64,000 bases of DNA from a bacterium (GCA_030647205.1 JAUSJO010000002.1:113112-177111); one strand, 5' to 3'; counted from the stretch's first letter, positions 4,339-54,044 are shown. The notes: a model not told the origin generated them from the sequence alone. Numbers and translations: made by a program.

Positions 4339-4680
4339 ATGTTAAATAAAATACTAAGAGTAGTTGATAAGAAATCTTTTACAAAAGTATCTCTTTTGGC
4401 ATTGCTTTTAACGTGTGTAGCTCTTTTACTGTTAAATTCATTTCCTTTGAGTAGCAAAGTCTTTTTGTATAATGACTGTCCACCACCCATGCTTTGTGAC
4501 TCCGAAGGAGTTACAAGCGGATATGGATTTCCTTGGATATTTAAAACAGAAGGAACTTTATCTGGTTCTGAAATTAATTTTGGCTTTCTGGCTTTAGATT
4601 TCCTTTTTTATTTTATTATTTCGTTTGTTCTATTCTCTATGTTTTATAATATAAAAAATAATAAAAAAAGAAATAAATGA
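4339..4680 (+). CDS. small 2-TM membrane protein, paralogue 1 of a tandem family (Cys-Pro loop, YGFPW)
   Basis: N-terminal TM, ectodomain DCPPPMLCDS...YGFPW, C-terminal TM LDFLFYFI, basic tail. Stop overlaps the next start. Confidence 0.55.
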   Translation: MLNKILRVVDKKSFTKVSLLALLLTCVALLLLNSFPLSSKVFLYNDCPPPMLCDSEGVTSGYGFPWIFKTEGTLSGSEINFGFLALDFLFYFIISFVLFSMFYNIKNNKKRNK

Positions 4681-5015
4681 TTACAAAAAAGCAGTTTACA
4701 ATATCCTTGGTCGCAGCCTTAGTCTTGTCTTCTCTTTTTATGGTTTTAACTGGTTTTGTTCTTGAGGGAGAGGTTGTAAGGAGTACGGGATGTGAACCAT
4801 ACCCATATCCTGACTGTCCAAGCAGTGCAACGTATGGTTTTGGATGGCCTCTAGACTATAGGGAAGTAGTAAGTCTAAGTGGGCTGTCTCTCCACGCTGA
4901 AACAGACTACGACTATTTGAATGGTGCTTTAGACTTTCTATTCTATTTTATCCCAACCCTCGTCATTCTTTATCTTTTATTTCTTCTAAAAGATCGTAGA
5001 GAGGTAAACAATTGA
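4677..5015 (+). CDS. small 2-TM membrane protein, paralogue 2
   Basis: MITKKQ start. Motif GCEPYPYPDCPS...YGFGWP. LDFLFYFIP TM. ATGA overlap with paralogue 1. Confidence 0.55.
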   Translation: MITKKQFTISLVAALVLSSLFMVLTGFVLEGEVVRSTGCEPYPYPDCPSSATYGFGWPLDYREVVSLSGLSLHAETDYDYLNGALDFLFYFIPTLVILYLLFLLKDRREVNN

Positions 5016-5383
5016 TTACAACCAAAAAACCAACTAAAAAAACTATACTTGTAGGTATTATTATCTCTTTTCTATTATTAGTTGTGACTACTATAGGTGT
5101 CGGATATGACGAATGTATATCTGATATCTTTGCTGAGACTTTTTCCAAGGAATATCACTACTTTGGGTTTGGTGAATATTGTGAGCAACGATCTAATCTC
5201 AGCTTTATACCCGGTTATGGCCAAGGATTCCCTTTTACTGCAATTAAGTGGGACGGAGGAGATTCTGCACCTGCTCCCTTGCTGGTTCTGTCAGGAATCG
5301 TTCTAAACTGGATTATTTATTTTGTACCGATATTTTTTATCCTTTATCTTTACCAATTAGTTAAAAGTCAAAAGAAACAATGA
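5012..5383 (+). CDS. small 2-TM membrane protein, paralogue 3 (divergent)
   Basis: TTG start overlapping the upstream stop. MITTKK N-terminus, YGQGFPF motif, C-terminal TM, basic tail. Confidence 0.45.
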   Translation: MITTKKPTKKTILVGIIISFLLLVVTTIGVGYDECISDIFAETFSKEYHYFGFGEYCEQRSNLSFIPGYGQGFPFTAIKWDGGDSAPAPLLVLSGIVLNWIIYFVPIFFILYLYQLVKSQKKQ

Positions 5384-5715
5384 TTACAAAGAAACAGCTT
5401 AAAATATCAATCTTGGTAAGCTTTGGATCCACCATAGTAGCAATGATTTTAATGTGGCTTGTTCCAGTCGGTACCTGCTGGTATAACGAGCATCCGAATA
5501 CTCCCGGCTTCCCGCCTACGGTCGACTTTTTTAACAGTTGCCCCTCATATGGGTTTCCCCAAAGAATCAAACCATGTTGTGACAACTATCTTTCTGACAT
5601 AATAATTATTTCTTTAATAATTGATACTATTATTGTTATTCTTATTAGTTTTCTTTTGAGTATTTCCTGCCTTTACCTAATAAATTATTTAAAAAAATCA
5701 CGGAGAAGTAAGTAA
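5380..5715 (+). CDS. small 2-TM membrane protein, paralogue 4 (divergent)
   Basis: MITKKQ start with ATGA overlap. PNTPGFPP and CPSYGFPQ motifs. C-terminal TM. Confidence 0.5.
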   Translation: MITKKQLKISILVSFGSTIVAMILMWLVPVGTCWYNEHPNTPGFPPTVDFFNSCPSYGFPQRIKPCCDNYLSDIIIISLIIDTIIVILISFLLSISCLYLINYLKKSRRSK

Positions 5716-6051
5716 ATGGCTAAAAAGAAACAAATAATAATATCTTTCTGTTTTGCTGCTGTCATATCAGTTGCAATTTCGACATTAACTGGACAATTTA
5801 TAGATAGAGGTAGCGAAATAATCTCGGACGGATGTAAGCCTACTCCCTTCCCCGATTGTGCAAGTACTAGCTTGGTCAAATATGGTTGGCCACTGATATT
5901 TAAAGAAGTAAAAACAGGTAGTGGTGATGTTGCCATAGACATAATAAAATATAACTATTCCAATGTAGCATTAGATTCTCTTTTTTACTTTATCCCAGCT
6001 TTTGTAATAACTTTTCTCTTTTTGTCTTTGAGAAATGAAAGCAGGGCTTAA
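5716..6051 (+). CDS. small 2-TM membrane protein, paralogue 5
   Basis: GCKPTPFPDCAS...YGWPLIF motif. LDSLFYFIP TM. Confidence 0.55.
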   Translation: MAKKKQIIISFCFAAVISVAISTLTGQFIDRGSEIISDGCKPTPFPDCASTSLVKYGWPLIFKEVKTGSGDVAIDIIKYNYSNVALDSLFYFIPAFVITFLFLSLRNESRA

Positions 6052-6063
6052 GATATTAAGGTA

Positions 6064-6375
6064 ATGAAAAAACTTATGATTACAAAAAATAATATATTGA
6101 AAATATTTATAATCAGCTTTCTTTTGGCACTTATTTTAACAGTTTTAACGTCGATATTTTTCACTAGGTATACTACTCCGCAATGCACCCCTTACGAAAT
6201 TTGCCCGGATTTGGCAATTCAAAATTATGGATTTCCTTTTGTCATTAAAGATACTTATCTCAATCAAGGGGTTTCTATAACTAGTCTGTCTTTGAATTTT
6301 ATGATTTATTTCTTCATTTCAGTTGTTATGCTCTCTGTCTTTTACATTTTGGAAAATCGTTCAAAGAAAAAATAG
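6064..6375 (+). CDS. small 2-TM membrane protein, paralogue 6
   Basis: MITKNN internal start. CTPYEICPD...YGFPFVIK motif. C-terminal TM. Confidence 0.5.
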   Translation: MKKLMITKNNILKIFIISFLLALILTVLTSIFFTRYTTPQCTPYEICPDLAIQNYGFPFVIKDTYLNQGVSITSLSLNFMIYFFISVVMLSVFYILENRSKKK

Positions 6376-8951: not shown

Positions 8952-8992
8952 GCTTTTGTCACTCTTGAGTGTAACGAAGGATCTCTATCTTT

Positions 8993-9022
8993 GTCATTAC
9001 CGTACTGAACCTAGTTCAGCAT
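8993..9022 (+). repeat. GTCATT-type hairpin repeat (CTGAAC-cta-GTTCAG)
   Basis: Member of the GTCATTC hairpin family, immediately upstream of 200-bp repeat copy 1. Confidence 0.5.
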
Positions 9023-9048
9023 AAACTCCGGCGAGAAGTCAGTTTCTA

Positions 9049-9264
9049 AATAATTTCCACTTTTTTAGAAAAAGTGGAGTAAAAATTGCGGCTTAGACGG
9101 CATCTTAAAAGTGTCGGATTCTAATTTACTTCAGGTTTGAAAAACCGGACTCCTTCCAGTCGGCCTAAAGGCTAATCGGTCTTTTCAAATCTTCATCAAA
9201 TCTTATCCTCGCTTTTCGATCCGATAGCCGCAAGAGAGCTCCCTTTGAAAAAATCATGCCGGAT
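9049..9264 (+). repeat. ~200-bp intergenic repeat element, copy 1
   Basis: Starts with the palindrome CCACTTTTT-TAG-AAAAAGTGG and ends CCCTTTGAAAAAATCATGCCGGA. About 93% identical to copy 2. Confidence 0.85.
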
Positions 9265-9315
9265 TAAATACAATTGAGGCTGTAATAATTTATTGAAATC
9301 TATTATAATAGCACC

Positions 9316-11391
9316 ATGGCAAGGCATAGAAAACCAGGCAGGCCCAAGGGGTCTACAAATAAAGGGAAAAAAGTCGAACCAACACTAAACCCGAAAATAG
9401 TCGGAGAGATAGTTGCGGTTGGGCTTTTTATTGTTGCGGTAATTCTTTTTGCCGGGGCATTTAACTTTGGCGGGAGATGGGCACTGGCCCTCTTTACAAC
9501 TTTTAGAGATATTTTTGGCTTTGTTTCTTACCTTATGCCATTCATCTTTATTGGTGTCGGGGCAGGACTTTTCTTCCCTGAAAGATTTCCGGTCAACAAA
9601 ATCTCTGCATCCGGGTTTGGCCTTTCCATTATATCTCTTTGCGGGATGTCCCAGATAATTTTCAGCGGACTAAAAAAAGACGGTGGCGGAGGGATGCTTG
9701 GCTCGCTGCTGGAAACGCAGATTTTAAAAATATTTAACTCTCCTGTTTCTTTCCTAATATTTACGGCTACCTTGATTATCGGACTTTTACTTGCTACTGA
9801 CACCTCAATCCGAGATCTTTTTGCACTCTTTAGAAATCAAGAAGAAGGCGAGGAGAAGAAGCCGAAAGAACATATTAAGATTCATGAGGGAGTTGCGGTA
9901 GCAAAAAACGTTTCCGATAAATTTAAGCCTGAGCCAAAAGAGCCGGAAGTAATGATGGTTGGTGACGATAAGGACTGGAAACTGCCGTCAGTTGATTTGC
10001 TTGAGGATACGACTACAAAAGCGGATAGCGGAAATGTGACAGAAAATGCAGCTGTCATCCAGGAGACTCTGGGAAAGTTTAACATAGATGTTGCGATGCG
10101 CGACGTAAATGTCGGGCCAACTGTAACGCAGTATACTTTAAAGCCCAGTGATGGAGTAAAGCTTTCAAAAATTACAAATCTTGACCGGGACCTAGCTCTT
10201 TCTCTCGCCGCTCATCCTATCCGTATTGAAGCACCAATTCCTGGGAAGTCTCTTGTCGGGGTTGAAATACCAAATAAAAAGGCAGCTATAGTTAGACTTA
10301 AAAATATTCTTACGAGTGAGACTTTCAAAGGGCGCCGTTCTAAATTATCAGTCGTTTTGGGGCTAGATGTTTCCGGTCATCCGCAGATTGCCGACATAAC
10401 AAGGATGCCACATCTTCTCATCGCCGGTTCTACCGGTTCCGGTAAATCTGTTTCCATAAATGCGTTACTGCTCAGTCTTCTCTATCAGAATTCACCCAAT
10501 GAGCTGAAACTGATACTAGTTGATCCGAAACGAGTGGAACTTTCTTTATATAATGACCTTCCTCATCTTCTCGCTCCAGTTATAGTTGAGCCTGAGAAAA
10601 CTGTGTCGGCGCTGAAGTGGGCGATTATCGAGATGGAAAGAAGGTATCAGCTTCTTCAATCGGCAGGGAAAAGAAACATTGTCGACTTTAACGCCATCAA
10701 AGGCAAGGAAGGCATGCCTTATATCGTAATTGTGATAGATGAGCTGGCTGACATAATGGCTGTAGCATCGAAGGAAGTTGAAGGTTTGATTTGCCGACTG
10801 GCGCAAATGGCTCGTGCCGTTGGTATCCACCTGGTTCTTGCGACACAGCGCCCATCAGTGGACGTTATTACCGGGCTTATCAAGGCGAATATTGTTACCC
10901 GTATAGCTTTCGCCGTAGCTTCTCAGGTTGACTCTCGCACAATTTTGGATCAGTCGGGAGCCGAAAAGCTCCTTGGAAATGGTGACATGCTTTTCACTTC
11001 AGCCGAATTCTCCAAGCCGAAAAGGATACAGGGAACGTTTATTTCAGAAAAAGAAGTCAAATCTGTTACAGACTTCGTTAAGTCAAATGGGAGTCCTGAA
11101 TATAACAAGGAAGTTCTGGAGCAAAAGCTTGGCGGGGTTAAGGGCGGTGACTTTGATGTGCCTGATGACGATCTTTTCCTTGATGCAGTCGACTGTGTGA
11201 TACGCTCAAACAAAGCATCCTCATCGCTTCTTCAGAGACGACTGAGAATTGGCTATGCCAGAGCGGCGCGGTTGCTTGATTTACTGGAAGAGCGCGGAGT
11301 GGTCGGACCGGCAGATGGCTCAAGGCCTAGAGATGTTTTAATCAGTGATATATCAGAGATAATTGACGAAAAAGAAGAAGTGGAGATCTAG
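9316..11391 (+). CDS. ftsK: DNA translocase FtsK/SpoIIIE
   Basis: N-terminal TM segments, Walker A GSTGSGKSV, C-terminal gamma-domain-like winged helix. Confidence 0.9.
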   Translation: MARHRKPGRPKGSTNKGKKVEPTLNPKIVGEIVAVGLFIVAVILFAGAFNFGGRWALALFTTFRDIFGFVSYLMPFIFIGVGAGLFFPERFPVNKISASGFGLSIISLCGMSQIIFSGLKKDGGGGMLGSLLETQILKIFNSPVSFLIFTATLIIGLLLATDTSIRDLFALFRNQEEGEEKKPKEHIKIHEGVAVAKNVSDKFKPEPKEPEVMMVGDDKDWKLPSVDLLEDTTTKADSGNVTENAAVIQETLGKFNIDVAMRDVNVGPTVTQYTLKPSDGVKLSKITNLDRDLALSLAAHPIRIEAPIPGKSLVGVEIPNKKAAIVRLKNILTSETFKGRRSKLSVVLGLDVSGHPQIADITRMPHLLIAGSTGSGKSVSINALLLSLLYQNSPNELKLILVDPKRVELSLYNDLPHLLAPVIVEPEKTVSALKWAIIEMERRYQLLQSAGKRNIVDFNAIKGKEGMPYIVIVIDELADIMAVASKEVEGLICRLAQMARAVGIHLVLATQRPSVDVITGLIKANIVTRIAFAVASQVDSRTILDQSGAEKLLGNGDMLFTSAEFSKPKRIQGTFISEKEVKSVTDFVKSNGSPEYNKEVLEQKLGGVKGGDFDVPDDDLFLDAVDCVIRSNKASSSLLQRRLRIGYARAARLLDLLEERGVVGPADGSRPRDVLISDISEIIDEKEEVEI

Positions 11392-16625: not shown

Positions 16626-16977
16626 GTCATTCCCGCGGAGGCGGGAATCTAGACTATAAAATATGAATTCATACTATGTTTATATGATGGCTAGTGATAG
16701 AAATGGTACCCTTTATATTGGGGTAACATCAAATCTCATAGGAAGGGCATTTGAGCATAAAAATGGCGCGTATGGTGGTTTTACCGCAAAGTATAAAGTA
16801 GATAAGTTAGTTTACTTTGAGGAGACAACAAGTATAGAAGAAGCCATCACGAAAGAAAAACAGCTAAAGAAGTGGAATCGTCAATGGAAAATGAGGCTTA
16901 TTGAGGACTTTAATCCCAAGTGGGAGGATTTATCCTATAACATTGCTTGACTAGATCCCCGCCTCCGCGGGAATGAC
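16626..16977 (+). mobile_element. GIY-YIG mini-nuclease cassette bounded by 27-bp inverted hairpin repeats, inserted between recA and recX
   Basis: GTCATTCCCGCGGAGGCGGGAATCTAG at 16626-16653. Its reverse complement (1 mismatch) lies at 16951-16977. Confidence 0.5.
16663..16950 (+). CDS. GIY-YIG nuclease family protein (stand-alone URI domain)
   Basis: YYVYMMASDRNGTLYIGVTSNLIGRAFEHKNG GIY-YIG motif, 95 aa. Confidence 0.85.
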   Translation: MNSYYVYMMASDRNGTLYIGVTSNLIGRAFEHKNGAYGGFTAKYKVDKLVYFEETTSIEEAITKEKQLKKWNRQWKMRLIEDFNPKWEDLSYNIA

Positions 16978-23409: not shown

Positions 23410-23428
23410 CCTTTTTCTCATCATCCTG

Positions 23429-23488
23429 GTCATTCGACTCTGAGTTGAGCTCATCGCTCAGGCTCAAAGAGCGGAGGCGGAAATCCAG
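23429..23488 (+). repeat. GTCATTC-type composite hairpin repeat
   Basis: GTCATTCGACTCTGAG...CTCAG...GAGCGGAGGCGGAAATCCAG, immediately upstream of repeat copy 2. Confidence 0.5.
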
Positions 23489-23495
23489 TTCTTTA

Positions 23496-23708
23496 AATAA
23501 TTTCCACTTTTTTAGAAAAAGTGGAGTAAAAATCGCGGCTTAGACGGCATCTTAAAGTGTTGGACTTCAATTTGCTTCAGGTTTGAAAAACCGGACTCCT
23601 TCCAGTCGGCCTAAAGGCTAATCGGTCTTTTCAAATCCTCATCAAATTTCATCCTCGCTTTTCGATCCGATAGCCGCAAAAGACTTCCTTTGAAAAAATC
23701 ATGCCGGA
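23496..23708 (+). repeat. ~200-bp intergenic repeat element, copy 2
   Basis: Near-identical to copy 1 across ~210 bp. Confidence 0.85.
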
Positions 23709-23760
23709 CGGGAGAGTGTTGTAGGTAGCAATTTACTACTAAATTGGTTAGTATCAAGTT

Positions 23761-24516
23761 ATGAAGAAACGGATCGACATTTTATTAACAGAAAAGGGAT
23801 TAGCCGAGAGTCGGACGAAGGCCCAGGCTTTTTTAATGAGTGGCCAGGTTGAGGTCGATGGGAGAAAAATAGACAAAGCCGGAACACTTGTTGATGATGA
23901 CTCCGAGATCAAGATCAAAGAAAGATTTCCATATGTTTCACGAGGAGCGCTAAAAATCCAAAAGGCTTATCAAGAATTTGGACTAGACTTTAAAGATATG
24001 GTGATTTGCGATATTGGTTCTTCAACAGGAGGATTCACTGATTTTGCACTTCAAAATGGGGCGAAGAAAGTTTTCGCCATCGATGTTGGCTACGGTCAGC
24101 TTGATCAAAAGCTTCGTGAAGATTCTCGGGTAGTTGTGATGGAAAAAACGAATTTTCGAGACATTGATGAGTTACCCGAGAAAATTGACCTCTTTGTCTG
24201 TGACGTATCTTTTATTTCACTTAAAAAAATTATCCTAAAAATTAAAGAGATTGTAGATTATAAAACACAGTGTGTTTTGCTTATAAAGCCTCAGTTTGAG
24301 GTGGGCAAAGAGGTCGCCGATAAATGCAAAGGTGTCATAAAAGACGAGGAAGTTCAGCGAGGAGTTGTAGAGGAGATTGCCAGATTCGCTGAAGACAATG
24401 GATTTCAGGTAAAGGGACTGACGGAGTCACCGATTACCGGTGCAAAGGGGAATAAAGAGTTTCTGATTTGGCTAACCCTCTCTTGTCATTCTGAACTTGA
24501 TTCAGAATCCAGATAA
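23761..24516 (+). CDS. tlyA: TlyA family rRNA 2'-O-methyltransferase
   Basis: S4 domain followed by an FtsJ-like methyltransferase (DIGSSTGGFTD). The last 9 codons are encoded by a hairpin repeat. Confidence 0.85.
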   Translation: MKKRIDILLTEKGLAESRTKAQAFLMSGQVEVDGRKIDKAGTLVDDDSEIKIKERFPYVSRGALKIQKAYQEFGLDFKDMVICDIGSSTGGFTDFALQNGAKKVFAIDVGYGQLDQKLREDSRVVVMEKTNFRDIDELPEKIDLFVCDVSFISLKKIILKIKEIVDYKTQCVLLIKPQFEVGKEVADKCKGVIKDEEVQRGVVEEIARFAEDNGFQVKGLTESPITGAKGNKEFLIWLTLSCHSELDSESR

Positions 24517-24836
24517 ATAAATTCCATGAATTCATATTATGTTTACATCACTGCGAGCCAAAGAAATGGAACGCTATATACCGGCGTAACCAATAACTTA
24601 ATGAAAAGAATCTATGAGCATAAAAACGCCAAGCCCGAAACCTTTACAGGTAAATACCTTACTAACAGATTGGTTTATTTTGAGGAAACAGCCAGTATTG
24701 AAGAAGCAATCAAAAGAGAAAAACAGATAAAAAACTGGAAGCGTAAATGGAAATTAGATTTGATTGAGGAAAATAATCCAGAATGGGAAGATCTTTATGA
24801 TAAGTTCCTGGATTCTGAATCAAGTTCAGAATGACA
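24486..24836 (+). mobile_element. second GIY-YIG cassette bounded by inverted hairpin repeats
   Basis: GTCATTCTGAACTTGATTCAGAATCC at 24486-24512 and its exact reverse complement at 24810-24836. A decayed extra copy lies at 24903-24921. Confidence 0.5.
24526..24834 (+). CDS. GIY-YIG nuclease family protein (paralogue, ~60% identical to 16663-16950)
   Basis: YYVYITASQRNGTLYTGVTNNLMKRIYEHKN motif. C-terminal DSESSSE encoded by the hairpin. Confidence 0.85.
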   Translation: MNSYYVYITASQRNGTLYTGVTNNLMKRIYEHKNAKPETFTGKYLTNRLVYFEETASIEEAIKREKQIKNWKRKWKLDLIEENNPEWEDLYDKFLDSESSSE

Positions 24837-24921
24837 AAACTAGTGAGAAAATGATTTTCTTTAGTGCTATCTCTGAACTGATCGAGGGAGATCTTATTTT
24901 ATGAGTTCAGAATGACAAGGG

Positions 24922-29448: not shown

Positions 29449-30489
29449 ATGGTCTTTGGTTTAGATCAACTAAAAGAAAATACAGACTACTTTGGCCTTG
29501 ATATTGGGACCAGTTCTATAAAGATTGCTCAATTAAAAAAATCGTTTGGCAAGTTTGAACTCATTTCTTTCGGTAGTGCTCCCGTTGAAAGTGGAGTTTC
29601 TCAGAGTGATAGTGCGATCGATAAGAAAAAAATTAGCGAGGAAGTGAAGCGACTTGTTCATTCTATGCACTTAGTGACAAAGAATGTAGTTGTTTCTTTA
29701 CCTGGCAGCAGCGTTTTCACTACGGTTATTAAGCTACCTAAAATGCCTATGTCAGAACTAAAAAAAGCGATTAGCTTTCAAGCAGAACAAAATATCCCTT
29801 TGAAGATTACCGATGTAAGGATTGACTGGCAGATTATAGGAGAATCACCAAACAGCGGAGAGGTGTCGGTAATGATTATTGCTGCTCCGATCATAAAAAC
29901 CAAAAAGGTAGCAGATATAGTTGAAGATGCTGGTTTGGATATACAAGCGGTTGAGATTAACGCTTTGGCTGTTTCCAGATCTCTTCAAGCGAATGAGCCC
30001 TTGTATGCTGTTGTTGACATTGGGACGTATACGACGGAGATCACGGTGGTCCAAAGTAATGTCATGACACTTACCAGAAGTATTCCTGTCGGAGGACAAG
30101 TTATGACAAGAGCAATAGCCCAGGATTTGAACATCGAGGAAGCCCAAGCGGAACAGTTCAAGTTAAAGTTTGGTGTTGATAAGGAAAGAATGGAGGGCAA
30201 GATATTTAAGGCCGCTAAACCAATTTTAAAGAACCTTACCGAAGAAATAGAAAGATCTATAAAATACTATTCTGACCAATATAACCAGAATGTTACAATA
30301 ATAAAGCTTACGGGTGGAGGGTCAAAAACAATAGGGATCCAAAGTTTTATTGCCGATCAGCTTGGTATGAACGTTGTATATGGCAATCCATGGGCAATGG
30401 TAGTTCATAAGCCTGACATAACAAATCAGCTAAACCAGAATGCGCCGGAGTTCGCAGTAGCAGTCGGTTTGGCAATGAGGGGGTTATAG
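29449..30489 (+). CDS. pilM: type IV pilus assembly protein PilM
   Basis: Actin-like ATPase fold. GLDIGTSSIKIAQL N-terminus. Confidence 0.85.
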   Translation: MVFGLDQLKENTDYFGLDIGTSSIKIAQLKKSFGKFELISFGSAPVESGVSQSDSAIDKKKISEEVKRLVHSMHLVTKNVVVSLPGSSVFTTVIKLPKMPMSELKKAISFQAEQNIPLKITDVRIDWQIIGESPNSGEVSVMIIAAPIIKTKKVADIVEDAGLDIQAVEINALAVSRSLQANEPLYAVVDIGTYTTEITVVQSNVMTLTRSIPVGGQVMTRAIAQDLNIEEAQAEQFKLKFGVDKERMEGKIFKAAKPILKNLTEEIERSIKYYSDQYNQNVTIIKLTGGGSKTIGIQSFIADQLGMNVVYGNPWAMVVHKPDITNQLNQNAPEFAVAVGLAMRGL

Positions 30490-30490
30490 A

Positions 30491-31063
30491 ATGGGGAAAA
30501 TAAATCTAGTTTCAGATATTCGTCTCGAAAAAATTAAGCTTAAAAGAAGAAAATTTATAGTGACTGTGTCGGCGGTTCTGATATTAGGCGTTATGCTGGT
30601 ATTTGTGTTGGTACTACAGGGATATAAATGGTCTCGAGTTTATGTTTTAGATAGTACCAAGAAAAAAATTGCCGCTACGGACGGAGAACTGGCTGAATAT
30701 AAAGATATAGAAGATATGGTTGTTAATATTGAACATGGTCTTCAAGCTGTTAAAAATATAGAATCAAGTGAGCCGAAATGGTCCAAGTTTTTGCCAGTTT
30801 TGGAGCAGGTAACTCCAAATGATATTAGGTTTACTGAGTTTACACAGACTGGCAACACGTTTACAGCTCAAGCACAAGGTCGATCTGTTCAGTCCATAGC
30901 AAGACTTATCAAGTCTTTGGAAAACTATGAATATAAAGAGAGTATTGATGCAAAAGTTGGTAAAAAGCTTTTCAAAAATGTCAATGTGGATGGGTATGAT
31001 CTTAAAGGGAAAGAGGTAAGCTTTAGTATAAGTTTTGAGATGGAACAGGGGGTTCTATGGTAG
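30491..31063 (+). CDS. pilN: type IV pilus assembly protein PilN
   Basis: Single N-terminal TM. Located after pilM. Size and topology fit PilN. Confidence 0.65.
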   Translation: MGKINLVSDIRLEKIKLKRRKFIVTVSAVLILGVMLVFVLVLQGYKWSRVYVLDSTKKKIAATDGELAEYKDIEDMVVNIEHGLQAVKNIESSEPKWSKFLPVLEQVTPNDIRFTEFTQTGNTFTAQAQGRSVQSIARLIKSLENYEYKESIDAKVGKKLFKNVNVDGYDLKGKEVSFSISFEMEQGVLW

Positions 31064-31647
31064 ACGCAAACAAAAAAATACAGCAGTATTACTGGATTGT
31101 CAGTGTGATAACTGCCGTAATCATCATTGTGATACTAACGGTTGCATTCGTCATTACTCCTACGTTCAAAAGTATAGGCCAAGTAAATACCGAGCTAAAA
31201 GAGAAAAAAGAAACATTATCGGTCAAAGAAAAGAAGCTGTCAAAACTGAAGGAGTTGAAAGTCAAGGAAGATGAGCTAAAGGAACAGTCGAGAATAGTAT
31301 ATAGGGCAATACCTACAAAAAAAGAGGTAGGTGACATTTTCATAGAACTCAATGCACTAGAAACCGATGCAGGCGGTGTATTCTCCGGAAGTAAAGGAGG
31401 GTCCTCATCAGCCTCGTCTGCCAGTAATGCTGAAGGTTCTGTCTCTGAAATAAACACTCTATCGTATAGCAGTGACGTAGCTTTCCCAAGTTATGGGGCG
31501 TTTAAGAAGCTGCTTAGTGACTCTGAGCAAGCACTTAGGTTTGTCCATCTTGAACATTTCGCTATCTCCAGCAGCGAAGGGTCGTTTAAGGTCAGTCTTT
31601 CATACAAGGCTTATTATCGAAACCAAATTAACACAGGAGGTCAATAA
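31057..31647 (+). CDS. pilO: type IV pilus assembly protein PilO-like
   Basis: Single TM followed by a coiled coil. Positional homology. Confidence 0.5.
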   Translation: MVDANKKIQQYYWIVSVITAVIIIVILTVAFVITPTFKSIGQVNTELKEKKETLSVKEKKLSKLKELKVKEDELKEQSRIVYRAIPTKKEVGDIFIELNALETDAGGVFSGSKGGSSSASSASNAEGSVSEINTLSYSSDVAFPSYGAFKKLLSDSEQALRFVHLEHFAISSSEGSFKVSLSYKAYYRNQINTGGQ

Positions 31648-31886
31648 TGAAGAAGAAGGATATTGTAGTTTTGATCATGTGTTCGTTAGTTATTTTTGCA
31701 TCACTATTTATTATCTTTGGAGGTTTATCAAAAAGCGCTCCTAAAACACAACCTCAAGTTAAAGAAAAAATGAACTTTAGTGGTGATATTCAAAAAGAAG
31801 ACATTGATAAGTTACTCAAAAGAAAAGATTATGGTGTGCCGCCGATGGATGGCATCGGCAGGGAAAATCCATTTGCTAGCCTTTAA
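31647..31886 (+). CDS. small membrane protein in pilMNO operon (PilP-like position)
   Basis: 79 aa, N-terminal TM. Start overlaps the upstream stop. Confidence 0.35.
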   Translation: MKKKDIVVLIMCSLVIFASLFIIFGGLSKSAPKTQPQVKEKMNFSGDIQKEDIDKLLKRKDYGVPPMDGIGRENPFASL

Positions 31887-31889
31887 GCC

Positions 31890-33665
31890 ATGCCTGTCAA
31901 AAACGAAAAAAAACTTGAAGAATTTTTAGTCAAGCTAGGCCTTGTAACAAAAAAGCAGCTTGACCTTATTAAAGTCCAGAGTGCAGAGTCCGGCAAATCT
32001 TTGGAACAGATACTAAAAGAAATGCCGAATATCAATAATGAAGAGATTTGTAAGGTCATTGCAGTGGCCTCTGACTTGCCTTATGTTGATATCACAGAAA
32101 AAAACATTGATCATAACATCTTAGATCTCCTGACAAAAAAAATTGCTGAAAAATATAGGATAGTGCCATTCGGGAAAATAGGCGACTTTTTAAATGTGGC
32201 GATGATAAATCCAAATGATATCCAGTCCATAGAGTATATTGAGAAAAAAACCGGTATGAAGTTAAAGCCCTACCTTGTTTCGGATAAGAGTATGGAAAAG
32301 GCTTTGGCCCAGTATGATGACTATTCTTTGGAGGTGGAGAGCGTAATTGGGGATATACAGAAAAAACAGGATCAGCCGGTAAAAGAAGAGGATACTAAAG
32401 ATAACCAAAAAGTTGCGACTATTACTCAAGATGCACCTATCACCAGAGCGTTAAATACCATACTTGAGTATGCCGCTAAGTCTAGGGCCTCTGATATCCA
32501 TATAGAGCCTAGAGACAAAGATGTGAAGGTCCGTTATCGTATAGATGGCATATTATACAATACTATGACTTTGCCGAAGCACATTCATCCGGCACTTGTT
32601 TCCAGGGTCAAGATTTTGTCGAGCTTAAAGATTGATGAGCACAGAGTTCCTCAGGATGGTCGTTTTCAACTTGCCACAGAAGGAAGAGAGATTGATCTGC
32701 GTATATCAATTACCCCTATCGTTTATGGAGAAAAAATTGTAATTAGGCTTCTTGATAAGACAAGCGGTATTATCACTCTTGAAAACTTAGGTATTAAGGG
32801 CAGGGCGTACAAAATTATTGAGGCAGGCATCCAAAAACCCCATGGAATGATTTTGGCGACCGGGCCTACGGGATCCGGTAAGTCAACGTCGCTGTATGCA
32901 GTGCTTACTAAGCTCAACAAACCAAGTGTAAACATCATTACTATAGAAGATCCGGTAGAATATAATGTTGATGGGGTGAACCAAATTCAAGTCAACAATG
33001 CGGTTGGTTTGACCTTTGCTTCAGGGCTTCGTTCGATGCTTCGGCAGGATCCGGATGTGATTATGGTTGGTGAGGTCCGTGACAAGGAAACTGCGGATCT
33101 GGCTGTTCAGTCAGCTTTGACGGGGCATACTGTTCTTACTTCATTACACACAAATTCTGCAGCAAGCGCTCTTCCTCGTCTGACTGATATGGATATAGAA
33201 CCATTTCTGATCGCATCTACTGTAAACACTATTATTGCCCAGAGATTGGTTAGAAGGATTTGTGACAATTGTAAGGAAGAGTATACAGCTACTCCGGCAC
33301 TGAGCAGGGCGATTAAAGAGTCATTGAAAGATATTTTGCCGTCAAAGGACGATGATCAGAAAAAAACCACAGATTTAGGTTTTGAAAATCTTCCTTTTAA
33401 AGAAGAGGAGAAGTTTAAGCTTTATCGCGGAAAAGGTTGTGAGTCATGTAAGAATACGGGCTTTTGGGGAAGAATAGGTGTTTACGAGGTTTTTACCATT
33501 AGCCAGAGAATTGAGGATTTGGTCATAGCTCGCGCTTCTGCCAGTGACATCCAAGCGGAGGCTATATCCGAAGGTATGGTAACGATGCGACAGGACGGAT
33601 TTTTAAAGGCTCTGGCGGGTATTACTACTCTAGAGGAAGTAGTCAGGACAACAACAGAAGATTAA
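31890..33665 (+). CDS. pilB: type IV pilus assembly ATPase PilB (GspE family)
   Basis: N-terminal GSPII_E_N domain, Walker A GPTGSGKST, tetracysteine motif CDNC...CESC. Confidence 0.9.
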   Translation: MPVKNEKKLEEFLVKLGLVTKKQLDLIKVQSAESGKSLEQILKEMPNINNEEICKVIAVASDLPYVDITEKNIDHNILDLLTKKIAEKYRIVPFGKIGDFLNVAMINPNDIQSIEYIEKKTGMKLKPYLVSDKSMEKALAQYDDYSLEVESVIGDIQKKQDQPVKEEDTKDNQKVATITQDAPITRALNTILEYAAKSRASDIHIEPRDKDVKVRYRIDGILYNTMTLPKHIHPALVSRVKILSSLKIDEHRVPQDGRFQLATEGREIDLRISITPIVYGEKIVIRLLDKTSGIITLENLGIKGRAYKIIEAGIQKPHGMILATGPTGSGKSTSLYAVLTKLNKPSVNIITIEDPVEYNVDGVNQIQVNNAVGLTFASGLRSMLRQDPDVIMVGEVRDKETADLAVQSALTGHTVLTSLHTNSAASALPRLTDMDIEPFLIASTVNTIIAQRLVRRICDNCKEEYTATPALSRAIKESLKDILPSKDDDQKKTTDLGFENLPFKEEEKFKLYRGKGCESCKNTGFWGRIGVYEVFTISQRIEDLVIARASASDIQAEAISEGMVTMRQDGFLKALAGITTLEEVVRTTTED

Positions 33666-33782
33666 GATTTTTGATTGAAATTTTGTCTTTGTCTGCTAAA
33701 TATAGAGATTGGCTAAAATAATTCTATTTCTAGGGTTGTAATCATAAACGGATTATCATAGAATTAAGTTATTGGAGGGAAT

Positions 33783-34856
33783 ATGGCTGAAAATACAAAA
33801 TTAAAAATAGAGAGCTTCCTAGAGGAAGTTATCAAGACAGATGCAAGTGATTTGCATTTGACTGTTGGTGTTCCGCCAATGCTTCGGGTTGATGGTGCTC
33901 TAAAACCAATAGAAGATGTCCGCGGGCTGACCGATAAAGATGTCCGAGATCTTACTTACTCTATTCTTGATGATGTCCAAAAAGATATTCTTGAACGAGA
34001 CAAAGAAGTTGATTTTTCATTTACTTATGGTGATCTTGCCAGATTCAGGGCAAATGCTTTTCATCAAAAAGGCAATATTGGCCTCGCTCTCCGTCTTATT
34101 CCTGTTGCGATTAGAAGTTTAACCCAACTTGGTATGCCTAAAATTGTAGATAAATTTACGGAGTTCCCAAGGGGTTTAGTCCTTGTAACGGGCCCAACCG
34201 GTTCAGGGAAATCAACTACACTGGCAGCAATGGTTGATAAAATTAACTCTGAACGTGCCTGTCATATTATTACTGTTGAAGACCCGATAGAGTATACGCA
34301 TTCGCATAAGAAGTCTGTAGTTGATCAACGTGAAGTACACTATGACACTCGTTCATTCGCAGCGGCTTTGAGGAGTGTGCTCAGAGAAGACCCGGATGTA
34401 GTTTTAGTTGGTGAAATGCGTGATCTTGAGACTATAGCGGCCGCGATCACAATTGCTGAGACCGGTCACCTTGTTTTGGCTACGCTTCATACGAATAATG
34501 CGGCTCAGTCTGTAGACAGAATGATTGATGTTTTCCCGCCGCATCAACAGCAGCAGATACGGGTACAGCTATCAAATATACTTCAAGGGATAATTTCTCA
34601 GCGCCTTATACCATCGATCGGTGGCGGACGCGTGGCTGCATCAGAAATATTGGTTGTTACACCAGCTGTTAGAAATATTGTCAGAGAGCAGAAAACCCAT
34701 CAGCTTGAGGCTGTTATCCAAACCGGTTCTTCCGAGGGCATGCAGGCTATGGACAGAACACTGGCAGGCCTCATTAAAACCGGTCGGGTAACACTAGACG
34801 AAGCAAAGGGTTATGCCATAGACGTTAAAGAGCTGGAAAGGCTTCTGCACGGATAG
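33783..34856 (+). CDS. pilT: twitching motility ATPase PilT
   Basis: GPTGSGKSTT, AAQSVDRMIDVFP, ~357 aa. Confidence 0.9.
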   Translation: MAENTKLKIESFLEEVIKTDASDLHLTVGVPPMLRVDGALKPIEDVRGLTDKDVRDLTYSILDDVQKDILERDKEVDFSFTYGDLARFRANAFHQKGNIGLALRLIPVAIRSLTQLGMPKIVDKFTEFPRGLVLVTGPTGSGKSTTLAAMVDKINSERACHIITVEDPIEYTHSHKKSVVDQREVHYDTRSFAAALRSVLREDPDVVLVGEMRDLETIAAAITIAETGHLVLATLHTNNAAQSVDRMIDVFPPHQQQQIRVQLSNILQGIISQRLIPSIGGGRVAASEILVVTPAVRNIVREQKTHQLEAVIQTGSSEGMQAMDRTLAGLIKTGRVTLDEAKGYAIDVKELERLLHG

Positions 34857-34859
34857 TAT

Positions 34860-36068
34860 ATGAAAGAGTATTCATACAAGGCTAGGAATGTACAAGGTGA
34901 TCTTATCCAGGGTAAGGTTGAAGCGGAGAGTAAGCAGGTTGCCTCAAATCTTTTGACTGCAAAGAAGCTTTTCCCGGTCGACATCAAAGAAGAAGCCCAT
35001 ACATCTTTCGGCATACCATTTCTAAAGACGATAAGAACAAAAGATAAGGTATTCTTCACCAGGCAGCTTGCCACAATGATTAACGCCGGGTTGCCTCTTA
35101 CTCAGTCTTTGCAGACGCTTTATAGCCAAACACAGTCGAAGTCGATAAGGAAAATGATTGAGCAGATGTTGCGTGATATAGAGTCAGGCAATGCTTTATC
35201 GGTTGCTTTGACGAGTTTTCCGGATGTTTTTAACAGGACTGACGTCAGTATGATTGCATCAGGTGAGGCAAGCGGAAAGCTTGATGAGGTGCTAGAGTAT
35301 ATGGCTGTGCAGTCGGAAAAGGGGTATAAAGTCGCCAGAAAAATAAGAACCGCTTTTATTTATCCCGCTTTTATTTTGGTTGTAGTTATAGCAGTTGCCT
35401 TGCTTATGTTAGTTTTTGTTCTTCCGCAAATGCAGGAGCTATACAAAAGCTTTGGGAACGCTCAGCTCCCTCTGCCGACAAGGATACTCATATCAGTAAG
35501 CGAAATCCTAAGGAAATATTATTTGCTTGTTATCCTTATTATTATTGCGATAGGAGCAAGCCTTAGGATATACGTCAGGACAGACACAGGAAAATATTTA
35601 TGGCATTCATTGAAACTTCGTTTGCCTTTGATTGGAAATTTTCTGCAGATGTCATACATGGCAATCTTTTCCAGAACTATGAGCAGTCTTGTTTCTTCGG
35701 GTGTACCTATTCTTGATGCGCTTAAGATCACCTCCGAAACCATGCCAAATATTATATATGAAAAAGCCATCATGGAAGTAAGGAGTAAGGTAAAACAAGG
35801 GAAAAATCTCTCGGGATCTATAAAAGAAACAGACCTTTTCCCTATAATGATCTCGCAAATGGTCGGGGTTGGTGAAAACACGGGAGAGATCGACAATATG
35901 CTAAAGAATTTAGCCGAGTATTATAGCGACGAGATTGATAACTGGGTAAAAAGCTTCCAGTCGCTTTTGGAGCCTATAATGATAGTTTTGATGGGGGGTA
36001 TAGTTGGTGGCGTGATTATTTCAATCATTATGCCGATATACAATGTTGGCGTTTTTGTGAAAAGATAG
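34860..36068 (+). CDS. pilC: type IV pilus platform protein PilC (GspF family)
   Basis: Two T2SSF domains, 402 aa, polytopic. Confidence 0.9.
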   Translation: MKEYSYKARNVQGDLIQGKVEAESKQVASNLLTAKKLFPVDIKEEAHTSFGIPFLKTIRTKDKVFFTRQLATMINAGLPLTQSLQTLYSQTQSKSIRKMIEQMLRDIESGNALSVALTSFPDVFNRTDVSMIASGEASGKLDEVLEYMAVQSEKGYKVARKIRTAFIYPAFILVVVIAVALLMLVFVLPQMQELYKSFGNAQLPLPTRILISVSEILRKYYLLVILIIIAIGASLRIYVRTDTGKYLWHSLKLRLPLIGNFLQMSYMAIFSRTMSSLVSSGVPILDALKITSETMPNIIYEKAIMEVRSKVKQGKNLSGSIKETDLFPIMISQMVGVGENTGEIDNMLKNLAEYYSDEIDNWVKSFQSLLEPIMIVLMGGIVGGVIISIIMPIYNVGVFVKR

Positions 36069-36080
36069 AAAGAAAGTATT

Positions 36081-36109
36081 TGACATAACATAAGCGCCTA
36101 GGATAATAT
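36081..36109 (+). promoter_or_regulatory. sigma70-like promoter for the major pilin gene
   Basis: TTGACA, 17 bp spacer, ATAATA. Confidence 0.45.
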
Positions 36110-36177
36110 TAGCTTGTAAATAGAAAATTTGTTTAATCAGAGCCAAATTTACAATTAAATGAGGCGGAGAGGTGAAA

Positions 36178-36591
36178 ATGAAAAAGTTAAATAGACAAGG
36201 TTTTACACTTATTGAGCTAGTTGTCGTTATGGCAATTATCGCTGTTCTTGCAGTACTAGTTGTAGGTGCTATCACAATAGCAAGAAATACAGCTAAAGAA
36301 ACTACACACAGAGCAAATGCAAAGGCTGTTCAAGCAGGGCTTGAGGCTAGATATAGCAGAACGAAAAACTATACAGGCATTTCTAGTGGCAACTTGAGTG
36401 CTATCGCAAGTGATACTTCAGTAAGCGCAGTTTTGCAAATGAGTAATGTTTGTAACAACGCCAGTTACAATGGTGGTGGAGCTGTAACATTCTCGACTGC
36501 TTCCGGATCACCGGCTTACACTATCAATGTAGCTAATGCTGCATGTGATAATACTAACTCCGGTGATAAGATTGACGGTCCTGTGAACTAG
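36178..36591 (+). CDS. pilA: type IV major pilin (prepilin)
   Basis: GGAGAGG RBS. MKKLNRQ-GFTLIELVVVMAIIAVLA class III signal and N-terminal helix. Confidence 0.85.
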   Translation: MKKLNRQGFTLIELVVVMAIIAVLAVLVVGAITIARNTAKETTHRANAKAVQAGLEARYSRTKNYTGISSGNLSAIASDTSVSAVLQMSNVCNNASYNGGGAVTFSTASGSPAYTINVANAACDNTNSGDKIDGPVN

Positions 36592-45405: not shown

Positions 45406-46206
45406 ATGTTATATGTAATTTTATTCTCACTGTTTTTTCTTGGCCTTATCGTTGGTAGTTTTTTAAATGTGGTTGTTTATCGGCTAGAAGATAAAAAAAG
45501 GAAGAATATAAGAGGCCGTTCTTTTTGCCCTCACTGCAGGGAGAAAATTAAAGCCTATGATTTGGTCCCTGTTTTATCCTGGATTATATTAAAAGGAAAA
45601 TGCCGAAGCTGCAAAAAGGAGATTTCTGTCCAATATCCTTTGGTAGAGCTTGCTACCGGCTTGGTTTTTGCTGTCCTTGGCTATATTTTTCTCCAGGGAT
45701 TGACTTTTTCAATAGCGAGTTTAGTAAATTTGGTTTTTTGGTTCTTTTTTACTGGATGCGTCATAACGGTCTTTGTTTATGACTTAAAGCACCAAATCAT
45801 ACCTGATGAGATCATTTACACTGCCTTGGTCGTAGCGTTAGTATTTGTTGGCTTAAATACCGGACTCACCGACAACTTCGAATATTTAACAGAACATCTT
45901 CTTGCCGGTTTTCTCGCCGGTGGGTTTTTCTACTCTTTGGCAGCTGTTTCAAAAGGTAAATGGATGGGCGGTGGAGATATTAAACTGGTGGCATTTATGG
46001 GGCTGGTGCTTGGCTGGAAGGGGGCGATCATCGCACTTTATACAGCGTTTATTCTAGGAGCACTTATAGGATCTTTCTTTTTACTGACTGGCAGGAAAAA
46101 GATGGGTTCAAAAATACCCTTTGGGCCGTTTCTGGTGATTGGAACATTTATAGGACTTCTTTTTGGTGAACAAATCGTTAACTTTTATGTTAGTATGTTT
46201 ATGTAA
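45406..46206 (+). CDS. pilD: prepilin peptidase (A24 family) PilD
   Basis: CPHC...CRSC zinc motif, polytopic, two catalytic Asp regions. Confidence 0.9.
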   Translation: MLYVILFSLFFLGLIVGSFLNVVVYRLEDKKRKNIRGRSFCPHCREKIKAYDLVPVLSWIILKGKCRSCKKEISVQYPLVELATGLVFAVLGYIFLQGLTFSIASLVNLVFWFFFTGCVITVFVYDLKHQIIPDEIIYTALVVALVFVGLNTGLTDNFEYLTEHLLAGFLAGGFFYSLAAVSKGKWMGGGDIKLVAFMGLVLGWKGAIIALYTAFILGALIGSFFLLTGRKKMGSKIPFGPFLVIGTFIGLLFGEQIVNFYVSMFM

Positions 46207-46226
46207 CTTTTTAAAAGAGGGTGAAA

Positions 46227-46709
46227 ATGGTTGATTTAAAAGGTAAAAAAGGCTTTACACTCATCGAAATAGTTGTAGTTATGACGATTATCGCTGTTCT
46301 TGCAGCGCTTGTTGTCGGGGCTATTATGATCTCCAAAAGAATGGCTACCGAAACTGCAAATAGACAGAACGCCCGGACAATTCGCACCTGTCTTGAGGCA
46401 TACTCCGCTAAATATAAAAAATTTTGCGGTGGTGGCATAGATCCCGGTGGGTTTCGTCTATTGTGCAATCAGACGTACAGCTTTAAAGGAGCGGTATATG
46501 CTTTGTCTGATCCTAATAATCAAATACAGTGCTCATTGGGTAGCGGAGCTACGAATATCACCGATAATTCAGGAGACCCATCATTTTGGACATGGCCAAA
46601 TGGCGGAGGGAGTATTATAGCAACCGAGCAGAGCTATATAATCAAAACCAGTAATGCCGCTGGGGATGCTCAGCCCGGAGGGGTGATAGATACCGCTACA
46701 TATCCTTAG
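46227..46709 (+). CDS. type IV pilin
   Basis: MVDLKGKK-GFTLIEIVVVMTIIAVLA. Confidence 0.8.
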   Translation: MVDLKGKKGFTLIEIVVVMTIIAVLAALVVGAIMISKRMATETANRQNARTIRTCLEAYSAKYKKFCGGGIDPGGFRLLCNQTYSFKGAVYALSDPNNQIQCSLGSGATNITDNSGDPSFWTWPNGGGSIIATEQSYIIKTSNAAGDAQPGGVIDTATYP

Positions 46710-46809
46710 CCGTACAAGTTTAGTGGATAAAAACAAGATATTTATGCTACTATAGATATAAGTGAATTTATGATAGCCATGAGTTAGAAACTATAAAGGA
46801 AGTATTGTT

Positions 46810-47550: not shown

Positions 47551-47553
47551 AAT

Positions 47554-48713: not shown

Positions 48714-48721
48714 ATTTGATT

Positions 48722-50305: not shown

Positions 50306-50346
50306 GATTATTGGTATTGGGTTTTATCCTCGAGTTTCTTTTTGGG

Positions 50347-51306: not shown

Positions 51307-51318
51307 TTTTCTTCCCTT

Positions 51319-51384
51319 GTCATTCCGAGCGTAGCGGAGGAATCCCTTCCCCCGTATGTCATTCCCGCAGAGACGGGAATCTAG
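51319..51384 (+). repeat. two tandem GTCATTC-type hairpins
   Basis: GTCATTCCGAGCGTAGCGGAGGAATCCC and GTCATTCCCGCAGAGACGGGAATCTAG, directly upstream of repeat copy 3. Confidence 0.55.
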
Positions 51385-51395
51385 TCTTTCTTTAA

Positions 51396-51600: not shown

Positions 51601-51684
51601 TTCATTGCTAGCTTTTGCAATATTGGTTATAGCTATAATTCCAACAACTTGAACATTTTGGACGATTCCCTCATACTTGTTTAT

Positions 51685-53998: not shown

Positions 53999-54020
53999 GG
54001 TATTGTCACCATAATTATTC

Positions 54021-54044
54021 GTCATTCTGGCTTGTCCAGAAGCA
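54021..54044 (+). repeat. GTCATTC-type hairpin
   Basis: GTCATTCTGGCTTGTCCAGAAGCA, upstream of repeat copy 4. Confidence 0.45.

Follow-up and report, generated by a model that had tools for sequence, protein, structure and literature searches.

The region analysed here is a stretch of 64,000 nucleotides (GCA_030647205.1, JAUSJO010000002.1:113112-177111; hereafter the window) from a bacterium whose TlyA protein has its nearest named relatives in candidate division WS5, CPR2, and the 'Patescibacteria group'. It contains five copies of an interspersed, hairpin-forming repeat of ~200 bp, all on the + strand, which lie 2.7-28 kb apart between housekeeping genes. Every copy is intergenic, with its 3' end ~50-67 bp before the next + strand start codon, and the neighbouring genes, checked by Pfam or database names, are those for RNase J and FtsK (copy 1), EF-P and TlyA (copy 2), a tyrosine recombinase and ComEC (copy 3), the metallo-β-lactamase part of ComEC and a response regulator (copy 4), and TsaE and TsaB (copy 5). 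The spacer of copy 3 is divergent, the recombinase gene lying on the opposite strand. The palindrome CCACTTTTTTAGAAAAAGTGG occurs five times in the window (at 9057, 23504, 51403, 54062, and 63181), each time inside a + strand copy, against an expected count of 0 in 100 shuffles, and a covariance model built from seven copies and run over the whole window recovered exactly these five and no further full, partial, or diverged copy. The initial annotation of this DNA, made from the sequence alone, had listed five same-strand copies placed upstream of ftsK, tlyA, comEC, a response regulator gene, and tsaB, and both the number and the placement stand.

Each unit consists of an AT-rich lead-in, a perfect hairpin (P1, 23-26 nt), an A-rich linker (8-10 nt), a long imperfect hairpin (P2, 135-160 nt), and an optional 3' box. 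The conserved start of the unit lies ~15 nt 5' of the palindrome and has the motif TTTAAATARTW. In the window copies, P1 is the 23-nt hairpin TCCACTTTTTTAGAAAAAGTGGA, with 10 bp and a 3-nt loop. P2 forms one irregular hairpin, the base of which comprises a 6-7-bp G+C-rich closing stem, a small internal loop, and a CGG/CCG helix; these basal stems are kept, whereas the middle and the tip occur in interchangeable versions, here classified into types A to E. Copies 1 and 2 belong to type A, copies 3 and 5 to type B, and the divergent copy 4 to type C. The 3' box (CCTTTGAAAAAATCRTGCCGG), present in all copies but copy 5, is situated 8-30 nt past P2 and is a repeat of the tip stem's 5' half in type A (TTTGAAAAA..CCGGA). 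The closing stem reads GCGGCT/AGCCGC in copies 1-3 and GCGACT/AGTCGC in copies 4-5, a G-to-A change in one arm being matched by C-to-T in the other. The starting palindrome, the 3' arm, the box in four copies, the subtypes, and this matched change had all been described before and were found again when the five regions were read; the 5' arm GAGTAAAAATYGCGRCTTAGACGG, earlier ascribed to each copy, is present in four, and copy 4 has TTATGGCGG in its place. Directly before every window copy lie one or two GC-rich hairpins resembling repetitive extragenic palindromes (REPs), of the form TGTCATTC...GAATCYAG.

Seven further copies were identified in metagenome-assembled genomes (MAGs) of Patescibacteria and in lake and soil metagenomes by exact-pattern scans (one MAG contig and three metagenome contigs) and gene-neighbourhood look-ups. 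They reside on contigs L002 (two copies), L003, L004, L005, L032/L033, and L040 (Table 1; contigs other than the window are given L numbers). Those from the Patescibacteria MAGs and the lake also stand directly 3' of a REP-like GC hairpin. The soil copies in L003 and L005 share a tip motif, AACUCGC...CUCAAACAA, which is common to types B and C, and occupy convergent spacers with no co-oriented downstream gene.

The fold of the unit is stable and strongly maintained. Copy 1 has a minimum free energy of -62.9 kcal/mol as RNA (z -4.65), and P1 alone is stable as DNA (-7.9 kcal/mol). In an alignment of 11 copies, 97.1% of the cells at paired positions are standard pairs, and changes on both sides were found in 29 of the 41 pairs, including two independent compensatory changes in P1. 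Pair 3 of P1 occurs as C-G, U-A, and A-U, so that the variants of the hairpin are symmetric (CCAC/GTGG, CTAC/GTAG, and CAAC/GTTG), and the closing stems of P2 comprise GCGRCU/AGYCGC, GCGAGCA/UGCUCGC, and CCCGACU/GGUCGGG. None of 500 shuffles matched the observed pairing and covariation values, and sliding the partners by 1-3 columns reduced the paired cells to 42-56% and left no more than 8 covarying pairs. Fitting of the alignment to the model favours structure; the effect is nonetheless very large, and the fold is thus conserved while the sequence turns over. Covariation between the arms, earlier noticed for a single exchange, is far more extensive than first seen. Covariation in palindromes can also arise at the DNA level, by selection on a single-strand hairpin or by templated correction of quasipalindromes, and is therefore by itself no proof of RNA function.

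Conserved synteny around the copies in related genomes permits a site-by-site comparison, and four of the five window sites were found to lack P1-P2 in relatives with TlyA or YebC identities of 79-97%. The EF-P/TlyA site is filled in the window, in L029 (TlyA identity 87%; the contig begins inside the 3' box), and in L032 (82%), and is empty in L034 (82%; the two genes abut), L025 (80%; a 132-bp spacer), and L028 (79%). At the recombinase/comEC site, L039 has REPs, the first of which is orthologous to that of the window, and no P1-P2. The site of copy 4 is empty, and free of REPs as well, in L035 (a 49-bp spacer) and in L039 (an 87-bp spacer). L035, a close relative (YebC identity 97%), was obtained from the sample that also yielded L029; its tsaE and tsaB genes overlap by ATGA and have neither the element nor a REP between them. 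Because a deletion would not recreate such an overlap, the state of this site in the window is that of an insertion. Along with the insertion, TsaE acquired a new REP-encoded C-terminus (AVIPTDPT), the two genes were separated, and a TAAAAT sequence came to lie six nt before the tsaB start codon. The overlapping tsaE/tsaB pair was split recently. At the filled site of L029, a degenerate tandem duplicate of the end of the 3' box comes after the box itself (AAAAAATCACGCCGGA TAAAAACAAAAAATCATACCAGA).

The ends of the unit carry no terminal inverted repeats (TIRs): the left end consists of the lead-in and P1, the right end of the closing stem or the box, and the only inverted match between them is a T6/A6 run. 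The pairing arms of P2 are internal, with P1 outside them, and the flanks outside the unit are unique apart from the REPs. No clear target-site duplication (TSD) was found at the two sites for which a close relative with an empty site is available (copies 4 and 5), where the gained DNA includes a REP and the junctions are not clean. At copy 4, the gained DNA is flanked by a TTTTA direct repeat, but this sequence is already duplicated at the empty site and an in-frame alignment puts the junction at the stop codon; comparison of copy 5 with the empty site of L035 revealed no duplication.

Several copies appear to be of recent origin. Pairwise identities are 94% between copies 1 and 2, 93% between copies 3 and 5, and 96% between copy 3 and the type B copy of L002, a contig of the MAG DS4.bin43, so that copy 3 is nearer to the latter than to its own paralogue in the window. 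The GatA protein of DS4.bin43 is at most 77% identical to any other protein (among 5.8 billion proteins); a copy identity of 96% therefore implies either transfer between lineages or very strong constraint. The copies that are 94-96% identical stand beside unrelated genes. L002 and L040 have identical GatA proteins and the same variant of P1 at the same site, and they differ in the P2 interior and in the order of the box and the 3' arm: in L040 the box pairs with the 5' arm as the closing stem, and the canonical 3' arm (TTTTCGAGCCGATAGCCGCA) is found ~60 nt downstream. This difference is an exchange of modules at the strain level and, together with the chimeric copy in L004, indicates that the family is modular and recombining. 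Contigs assembled from short reads of the sample that gave the window break off within copies 2, 4, and 5, as expected of a genome-wide repeat.

Table 1. Locations of the repeat copies, REP-like hairpins, and other features in the window (plain coordinates) and on related contigs (L numbers)
Feature	Location	Strand	Description	Score (bits)
Copy 1, type A	9040-9264	+	lead-in TTTCTAAATAATT; P1 9056-9078; linker 9079-9086; P2 9087-9232, closing stem UGCGGCU/AGCCGCA; 3' box 9241-9263	178.7
Copy 2, type A	23487-23708	+	P1 23503-23525; P2 ~23535-23678; 3' box 23687-23707	177.3
Copy 3, type B	51386-51600	+	P1 51402-51424; P2 ~51433-51568; 3' box 51577-51599	190.5
Copy 4, type C	54045-54275	+	P1 54061-54083; P2 ~54093-54227; 3' box 54253-54273	153.8
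Copy 5, type B	63164-63348	+	P1 63180-63202; P2 ~63212-63348	181.6
REP of copy 1	8992-9042	+	TGTCATTA...GAAGTCAG; same subtype in L025 and L002	
REP of copy 2	23428-23488	+	directly upstream of the copy	
Two tandem REPs of copy 3	51318-51384 (51318-51346, 51357-51384)	+	first orthologous to L039:6907; second flagged as terminator-like	
REP of copy 4	54020-54046	+	CGTCATTCTGGCTTGTCCAGAAGCATC	
REP of copy 5	63117-63161	+	overlaps the tsaE 3' end; C-terminal residues of TsaE encoded by it	
Copy in L002, type B	L002:1292-1458		MAG DS4.bin43	
Second copy in L002			P1 TCAAC...GTTGA with a 4-nt loop; behind five tandem REPs; full-length form in L040	
Regions compared between L040 and L002	L040:13026-13280; L002:1-135		order of box and 3' arm	
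Copy in L004			base of type C and tip like type A, followed by a box variant and an additional 3' arm	
Copies in L003 and L005			rhizosphere soil; P1 and linker identical; P2 unrelated in sequence; closing stem GCGAGCA/UGCUCGC	
Copy in L032/L033, type E			lake; P1 TCTAC...GTAGA; linker AAUCAAAAAU; closing stem CCCGACU/GGUCGGG	
Duplicated end in L029	L029:1-60		3' box and degenerate duplicate	
GIY-YIG (PF01541) minigenes	16663-16950; 24526-24834		95 and 102 aa	
GIY-YIG cassettes	16626-16977; 24485-24835		minigene between inverted REP-like pair	
Extra REP	24890-24916			
REP start as -35-like box	51288-51345	-	also at 8968-8997	
REP-encoded TsaE C-terminus	63100-63141		translated REP-like sequence	
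TATAAT-like boxes	9303-9318; 23747-23763; 63389-63405		ftsK; tlyA; tsaB	
Response regulator gene	54342		AAGGAG leader	
tRNA	54927-55000		only Rfam match in the window	
Small PD-(D/E)XK (PDDEXK_3) gene	L025:2440-2829; L032:2456-2848		between lexA-adjacent gene and recA	
P1-like motifs in giant-virus-like contigs	L007:4690-4780; L010:4500-4610; L014:3288-3322; L016:3100-3240 (= L024); L036:4790-4870; L037:770-850; L038:1600-1690			
Type IV pilus cluster	29449-36591; 45406-53998		adjoins comEC	
GatA insert	L002:2200-2350		internal, ~50 aa	
Six tandem ORFs	4339-6375		103-123 aa	

Presence and absence at orthologous sites, near-identical paralogues, identity across lineages, module swaps, and assembly breaks all point to a mobile or duplicative repeat. 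We consider, on balance, that the element is probably a non-autonomous, mosaic repeat of Patescibacteria (of the WS5/CPR2 neighbourhood) that forms hairpins and moves in a structure-dependent manner, in the class of BOX elements, enterobacterial repetitive intergenic consensus (ERIC) sequences, bacterial interspersed mosaic elements (BIMEs), and REP doublets forming hairpins (REPINs). Its units are gained in short spacers that separate the end of a gene from the promoter of the following one. An enzyme encoded elsewhere would recognise P1 and the P2 base in their folded single-stranded form, and movement may proceed by a peel-and-paste or nick-and-copy process, as in elements of the IS200/IS605 and REPIN types. 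A single-strand mechanism of this kind would explain the lack of TIRs and of clear TSDs, the strand bias, and the observation of pairing throughout, since only copies with intact hairpins would leave descendants. Effects on the neighbouring genes, such as the operon uncoupling, altered protein terminus, and promoter-like sequence seen at tsaE/tsaB, would be by-products, and read-through transcription of the unit would yield a long RNA hairpin.

Several points weigh against this interpretation. The window contains no transposase, HUH, or TnpB gene, and each unit has a single P1-type hairpin, whereas IS200/IS605 ends have similar hairpins on both sides. The DNA gained at copies 4 and 5 also holds a REP and ~20-45 nt of unique sequence, so that the moving unit is not cleanly defined. 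Allelic replacement by recombination between strains could yield the same pattern of presence and absence, and the type E copy at the EF-P/TlyA site of L032 may reflect long vertical persistence of a functional element as well as repeated insertion. Identity of 96% across distant genomes and the conserved loop of P1 and linker are also what strong selection acting on an RNA would give. The model pairs comprise 17 G-U against 5 A-C pairs on the + strand, a weak hint of constraint at the RNA level, although the alignment was fitted with a model of that strand.

These last observations lead to the rival that survives best, in which the unit is a gene of ~170-200 nt for a trans-acting structured RNA, with P1 as a 5' handle and P2 as a long irregular hairpin, that spreads horizontally as a selfish or useful gene; such an RNA may act as a decoy for a protein or, in the manner of 6S RNA, for RNA polymerase, or as the partner or guide of some protein. 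Five sequence types retain the architecture through massive compensation, the loop of P1 and the linker do not vary in 9 of the 11 aligned copies, and a TAnnnT box (TAATTT, TAGTAT, TAGTTT, and similar) abuts P1 in all copies of types A-C. The G-U excess, the type B P2 with its closing stem, pyrimidine-rich central bubble, and terminal stem recalling 6S RNA, the near identity of copy 3 and its counterpart in DS4.bin43, and the two soil copies that lie upstream of no co-oriented gene all accord with this proposal. However, no intrinsic terminator follows P2 or the box, the folding energy of types B, D, and E is better on the minus strand, and substitutions between close copies show only a weak trend to avoid stems. 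In addition, the P2 interior is swapped wholesale between strains and is poorly structured in L032 (z -1.8), and the copy number varies strongly between close relatives. The search of the whole window against Rfam 15 at gathering thresholds returned only a tRNA; with a permissive E-value, copy 1 and the copies in L003-L005 gave only sub-threshold chance matches, none of them centred on the element, and no match to the 6S models, as had been anticipated in the initial annotation, which recognised no known RNA family. We regard a trans-acting RNA gene as rather unlikely.

Strand bias had also been taken as an argument for RNA, but here it does not discriminate between RNA and DNA mechanisms. GC skew is positive across the whole window, and the + strand is therefore the leading (G-rich) strand as well as the main coding strand. 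The element is on the G-rich strand in all seven contigs, a result confounded with gene orientation: in tandem spacers, six of six independent copies are co-oriented with the genes and none is inverted, and the divergent spacers (copy 3 and L004) are uninformative. The co-orientation is thus explained equally well by the direction of replication.

A variant that combines mobility with a function of the fold, namely a horizontally mobile structured-RNA gene or a substrate of folded single-stranded DNA, in either case acting together with a partner protein, is doubtful. It could be a passenger of a REP system in which a GIY-YIG nuclease replaces the HUH-type REP-associated tyrosine transposase (RAYT), or a trans-acting RNA composed of a handle and a long hairpin. 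The window contains two GIY-YIG minigenes, each between an inverted pair of REP-like hairpins (TGTCATTCCCGCGGAGGCGGGAATCTAG ... and its reverse complement). The cassette at recA/recX is found also in L025 and is absent from L028, L032, and L034, and the one after tlyA is absent from L029; the cassettes are thus mobile themselves. A small nuclease gene of the PD-(D/E)XK type between a lexA-adjacent gene and recA, present in L025 and L032 and missing at that site in the window, is likewise patchily distributed. The REPs beside different copies of the element are dissimilar, though REP and unit appear together at new sites. The window has 12 kb in common with L035; across this stretch the single REP behind ruvB is conserved, and differences in REPs are confined to the two that are attached to P1-P2. 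The REP start in reverse complement (GGAATGACA) gives a -35-like box, and upstream of the tyrosine recombinase gene the sequence reads ATGACA, 17 nt, TACAAT, 6 nt, and ATG, which suggests that REPs may donate outward promoters. REP-like sequence is also translated within proteins, as at the C-terminus of TsaE and in an internal insert in GatA of DS4.bin43.

A classical miniature inverted-repeat transposable element (MITE), i.e. an insertion sequence that has lost internal parts and is moved by a DDE transposase acting on its TIRs, with production of TSDs, is very unlikely. The element is small, non-coding, multi-copy, and insertion-polymorphic, has a long hairpin as many MITEs do, and is associated at copy 4 with the TTTTA repeat; against this stand the prior duplication of that repeat and the position of the junction, the absence of any duplication at copy 5, unit ends without inverted match, arms that lie internal to the conserved P1, the single orientation of all copies, and the lack of a transposase gene in the window. 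The initial annotation had offered a MITE with co-evolving terminal repeats as its alternative, which comes closer than a leader without fitting exactly: the arms are not terminal, and the greatest conservation is found in a one-sided hairpin that lies outside the long palindrome. A site in double-stranded DNA, in which the P1 palindrome would be bound by a dimeric protein (an operator or a partition or chromosome-organising site) with P2 as an incidental passenger, is highly improbable: P1 is a perfect palindrome with symmetric variants and overlaps the transcription start expected after the TAnnnT box, but it never occurs without P2, solo half-sites are missing from the intergenic DNA, the change of the loop from 3 to 4 nt in one variant alters the spacing of the half-sites and not the hairpin, and the pairing of P2 is itself strongly maintained. 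The absence of solo half-sites also led us to reject a DNA-uptake sequence or a parS-like site. The sequence TGGAGTAAAAATTGC has the -24/-12 spacing of a sigma-54 promoter, but its GG falls in a covarying pair of P1 and becomes TAG in L032 and TTG in the second copy of L002; a type I toxin-antitoxin system or small open reading frame (ORF) was set aside on finding only short antisense ORFs that are not conserved between types, and P1 as an intrinsic terminator gives a weak match on the minus strand, with three G-C pairs and no proper U tract.

Least probable of all, and extremely so, is a cis-regulatory 5' leader (a riboswitch, attenuator, or protein-binding leader): the window copies all end shortly upstream of a co-oriented gene and the 3' box could offer the type A tip stem an alternative pairing, but the downstream genes are functionally unrelated, relatives have tlyA, comEC, the response regulator gene, and tsaB without the element, the genes retain their own promoters after it (several look leaderless, with TATAAT 6-7 nt before ATG), near-identical copies stand beside unrelated genes, and the soil copies face convergent genes. 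Of the structured-RNA reading first proposed, the genuine family, the covarying arms, and the absence from Rfam are retained, and the preference for a cis-regulatory leader is largely refuted. The TATAAT-like boxes of ftsK, tlyA, and tsaB occur without a Shine-Dalgarno sequence, which suggests that leaderless mRNAs may be common in this organism; the response regulator gene has an ordinary leader.

Interspersed hairpin repeats are a known kind of element, and none is described for Patescibacteria in the searchable literature; a search on Patescibacteria repeats, MITEs, and GIY-YIG genes with REPs found nothing relevant. Copy 1 gave no BLAST match in phage and plasmid collections. The modular BOX elements of Streptococcus pneumoniae (boxA-boxB-boxC) resemble the present family in being intergenic and ~100-300 bp long, with modules that are recombined and present or absent, a stable long hairpin, and no transposase of their own; they are often near gene starts and can affect neighbouring expression. 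They have no sequence relation to it and belong to another phylum, and the element described here has a one-sided P1, a single orientation, and abutting REP-like hairpins. ERIC sequences, also called intergenic repeat units, of enterobacteria and Correia repeat enclosed elements of Neisseria are likewise imperfect palindromes (100-160 bp) in transcribed intergenic spacers with strain-polymorphic insertions. Correia elements can donate promoters, as the insertion of copy 5 may do for tsaB, but they have 26-bp TIRs, a TA duplication, and both orientations, none of which is seen here. With REP/BIME, REPIN-RAYT, and the palindromic elements of the IS200/IS605 group, the family shares the lack of TIRs and mosaic clustering with further motifs at gene ends and, presumably, the lack of TSDs, a strand bias, and hairpin-dependent recognition. 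REPs flank RAYT genes, and the REP-like hairpins here flank a small nuclease gene as an inverted pair; the gene in question is GIY-YIG and not HUH/Y1, P1-P2 is much longer than a REP or REPIN, and P1 and its half-sites occur once per unit, unlike the similar subterminal hairpins at both ends of IS200/IS605 elements.

Among RNAs, the type B P2 has the outline of 6S RNA (a closing stem, a large central bubble, and a terminal stem-loop in ~170-200 nt), but it matches no 6S model, and the element is multi-copy, with five in 64 kb, insertion-polymorphic, without conserved synteny, and variable in its interior. In retron msr-msd regions, too, a long hairpin of variable sequence follows a short conserved one; here, the copies are many and dispersed, their neighbours are housekeeping genes rather than a reverse transcriptase, and flanking a1/a2 repeats are lacking. 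The closing stems do not have the R''/R' sites (RYYYAAC ... GTTRRRY) of integron attC, and the copies are dispersed rather than arrayed beside an integrase. Conservation upstream of orthologues, typical of riboswitches and leaders, was not seen. TIGR-Tas arrays, found in candidate phyla radiation bacteria, consist of tandem short dual-spacer units beside a Tas gene with a Nop domain (PMC12045711). The units of the present element are single and dispersed; they form no tandem array and lack a Tas-like neighbour. Complementarity between loops and flanks, of the kind used by bridge or guide RNAs, gave no match by eye, no complementarity search having been made.

Genomes of Patescibacteria, at ~1 Mb, are very small and are commonly regarded as containing few repeats and little mobile DNA. 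Here, five intergenic spacers are occupied within 64 kb, which is a nuisance for assembly and binning and, at the same time, makes the element a marker for gene flow and very recent change in the genomes of unculturable organisms. The family also provides a natural data set of a conserved fold with freely changing sequence, from which it can be asked what recognises the fold. If the partner were the REP-flanked GIY-YIG nuclease or an RNA-binding protein, the family would represent a new mobilisation or RNA system; a structured RNA or single-stranded DNA with a partner protein would constitute a new structure-dependent class of mobile element and the first described interspersed hairpin family specific to Patescibacteria. 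With no such partner, the BOX/ERIC/BIME class would be extended to a new phylum.

Giant-virus-like contigs of IMG/VR carry the sequence TCCACTTTT(TT)AGAAAAAGTGGAG(T/C)AAAAA, identical or nearly identical to P1 and the linker. The motif is often in tandem and upstream of genes, and in one case forms a small inverted-repeat insert within a helicase-like gene; a short second hairpin comes after it in L036-L038. A YqaJ-type exonuclease, an HNH endonuclease, and a glycosyltransferase are encoded on L036. This likeness may be a chance match between families of AT-rich palindromes or a real link.

The large type IV pilus cluster of the window includes pilM, pilN, pilO, pilB, pilT, and pilC as well as genes for pilins and a prepilin peptidase. 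Such a set of competence and pilus genes is usual in Patescibacteria, and natural transformation could spread alleles that bear the element. The GatA protein of DS4.bin43 has an internal insert rich in GNDKEMGNDGG and is 543 aa long, compared with 469-530 aa in relatives without the insert. Six tandem paralogous ORFs near the start of the window each encode a hydrophobic segment at the N-terminus and a cysteine/YGF(G)WP-like motif that is conserved, and the array appears to be a locally amplified family of small membrane or secreted proteins.

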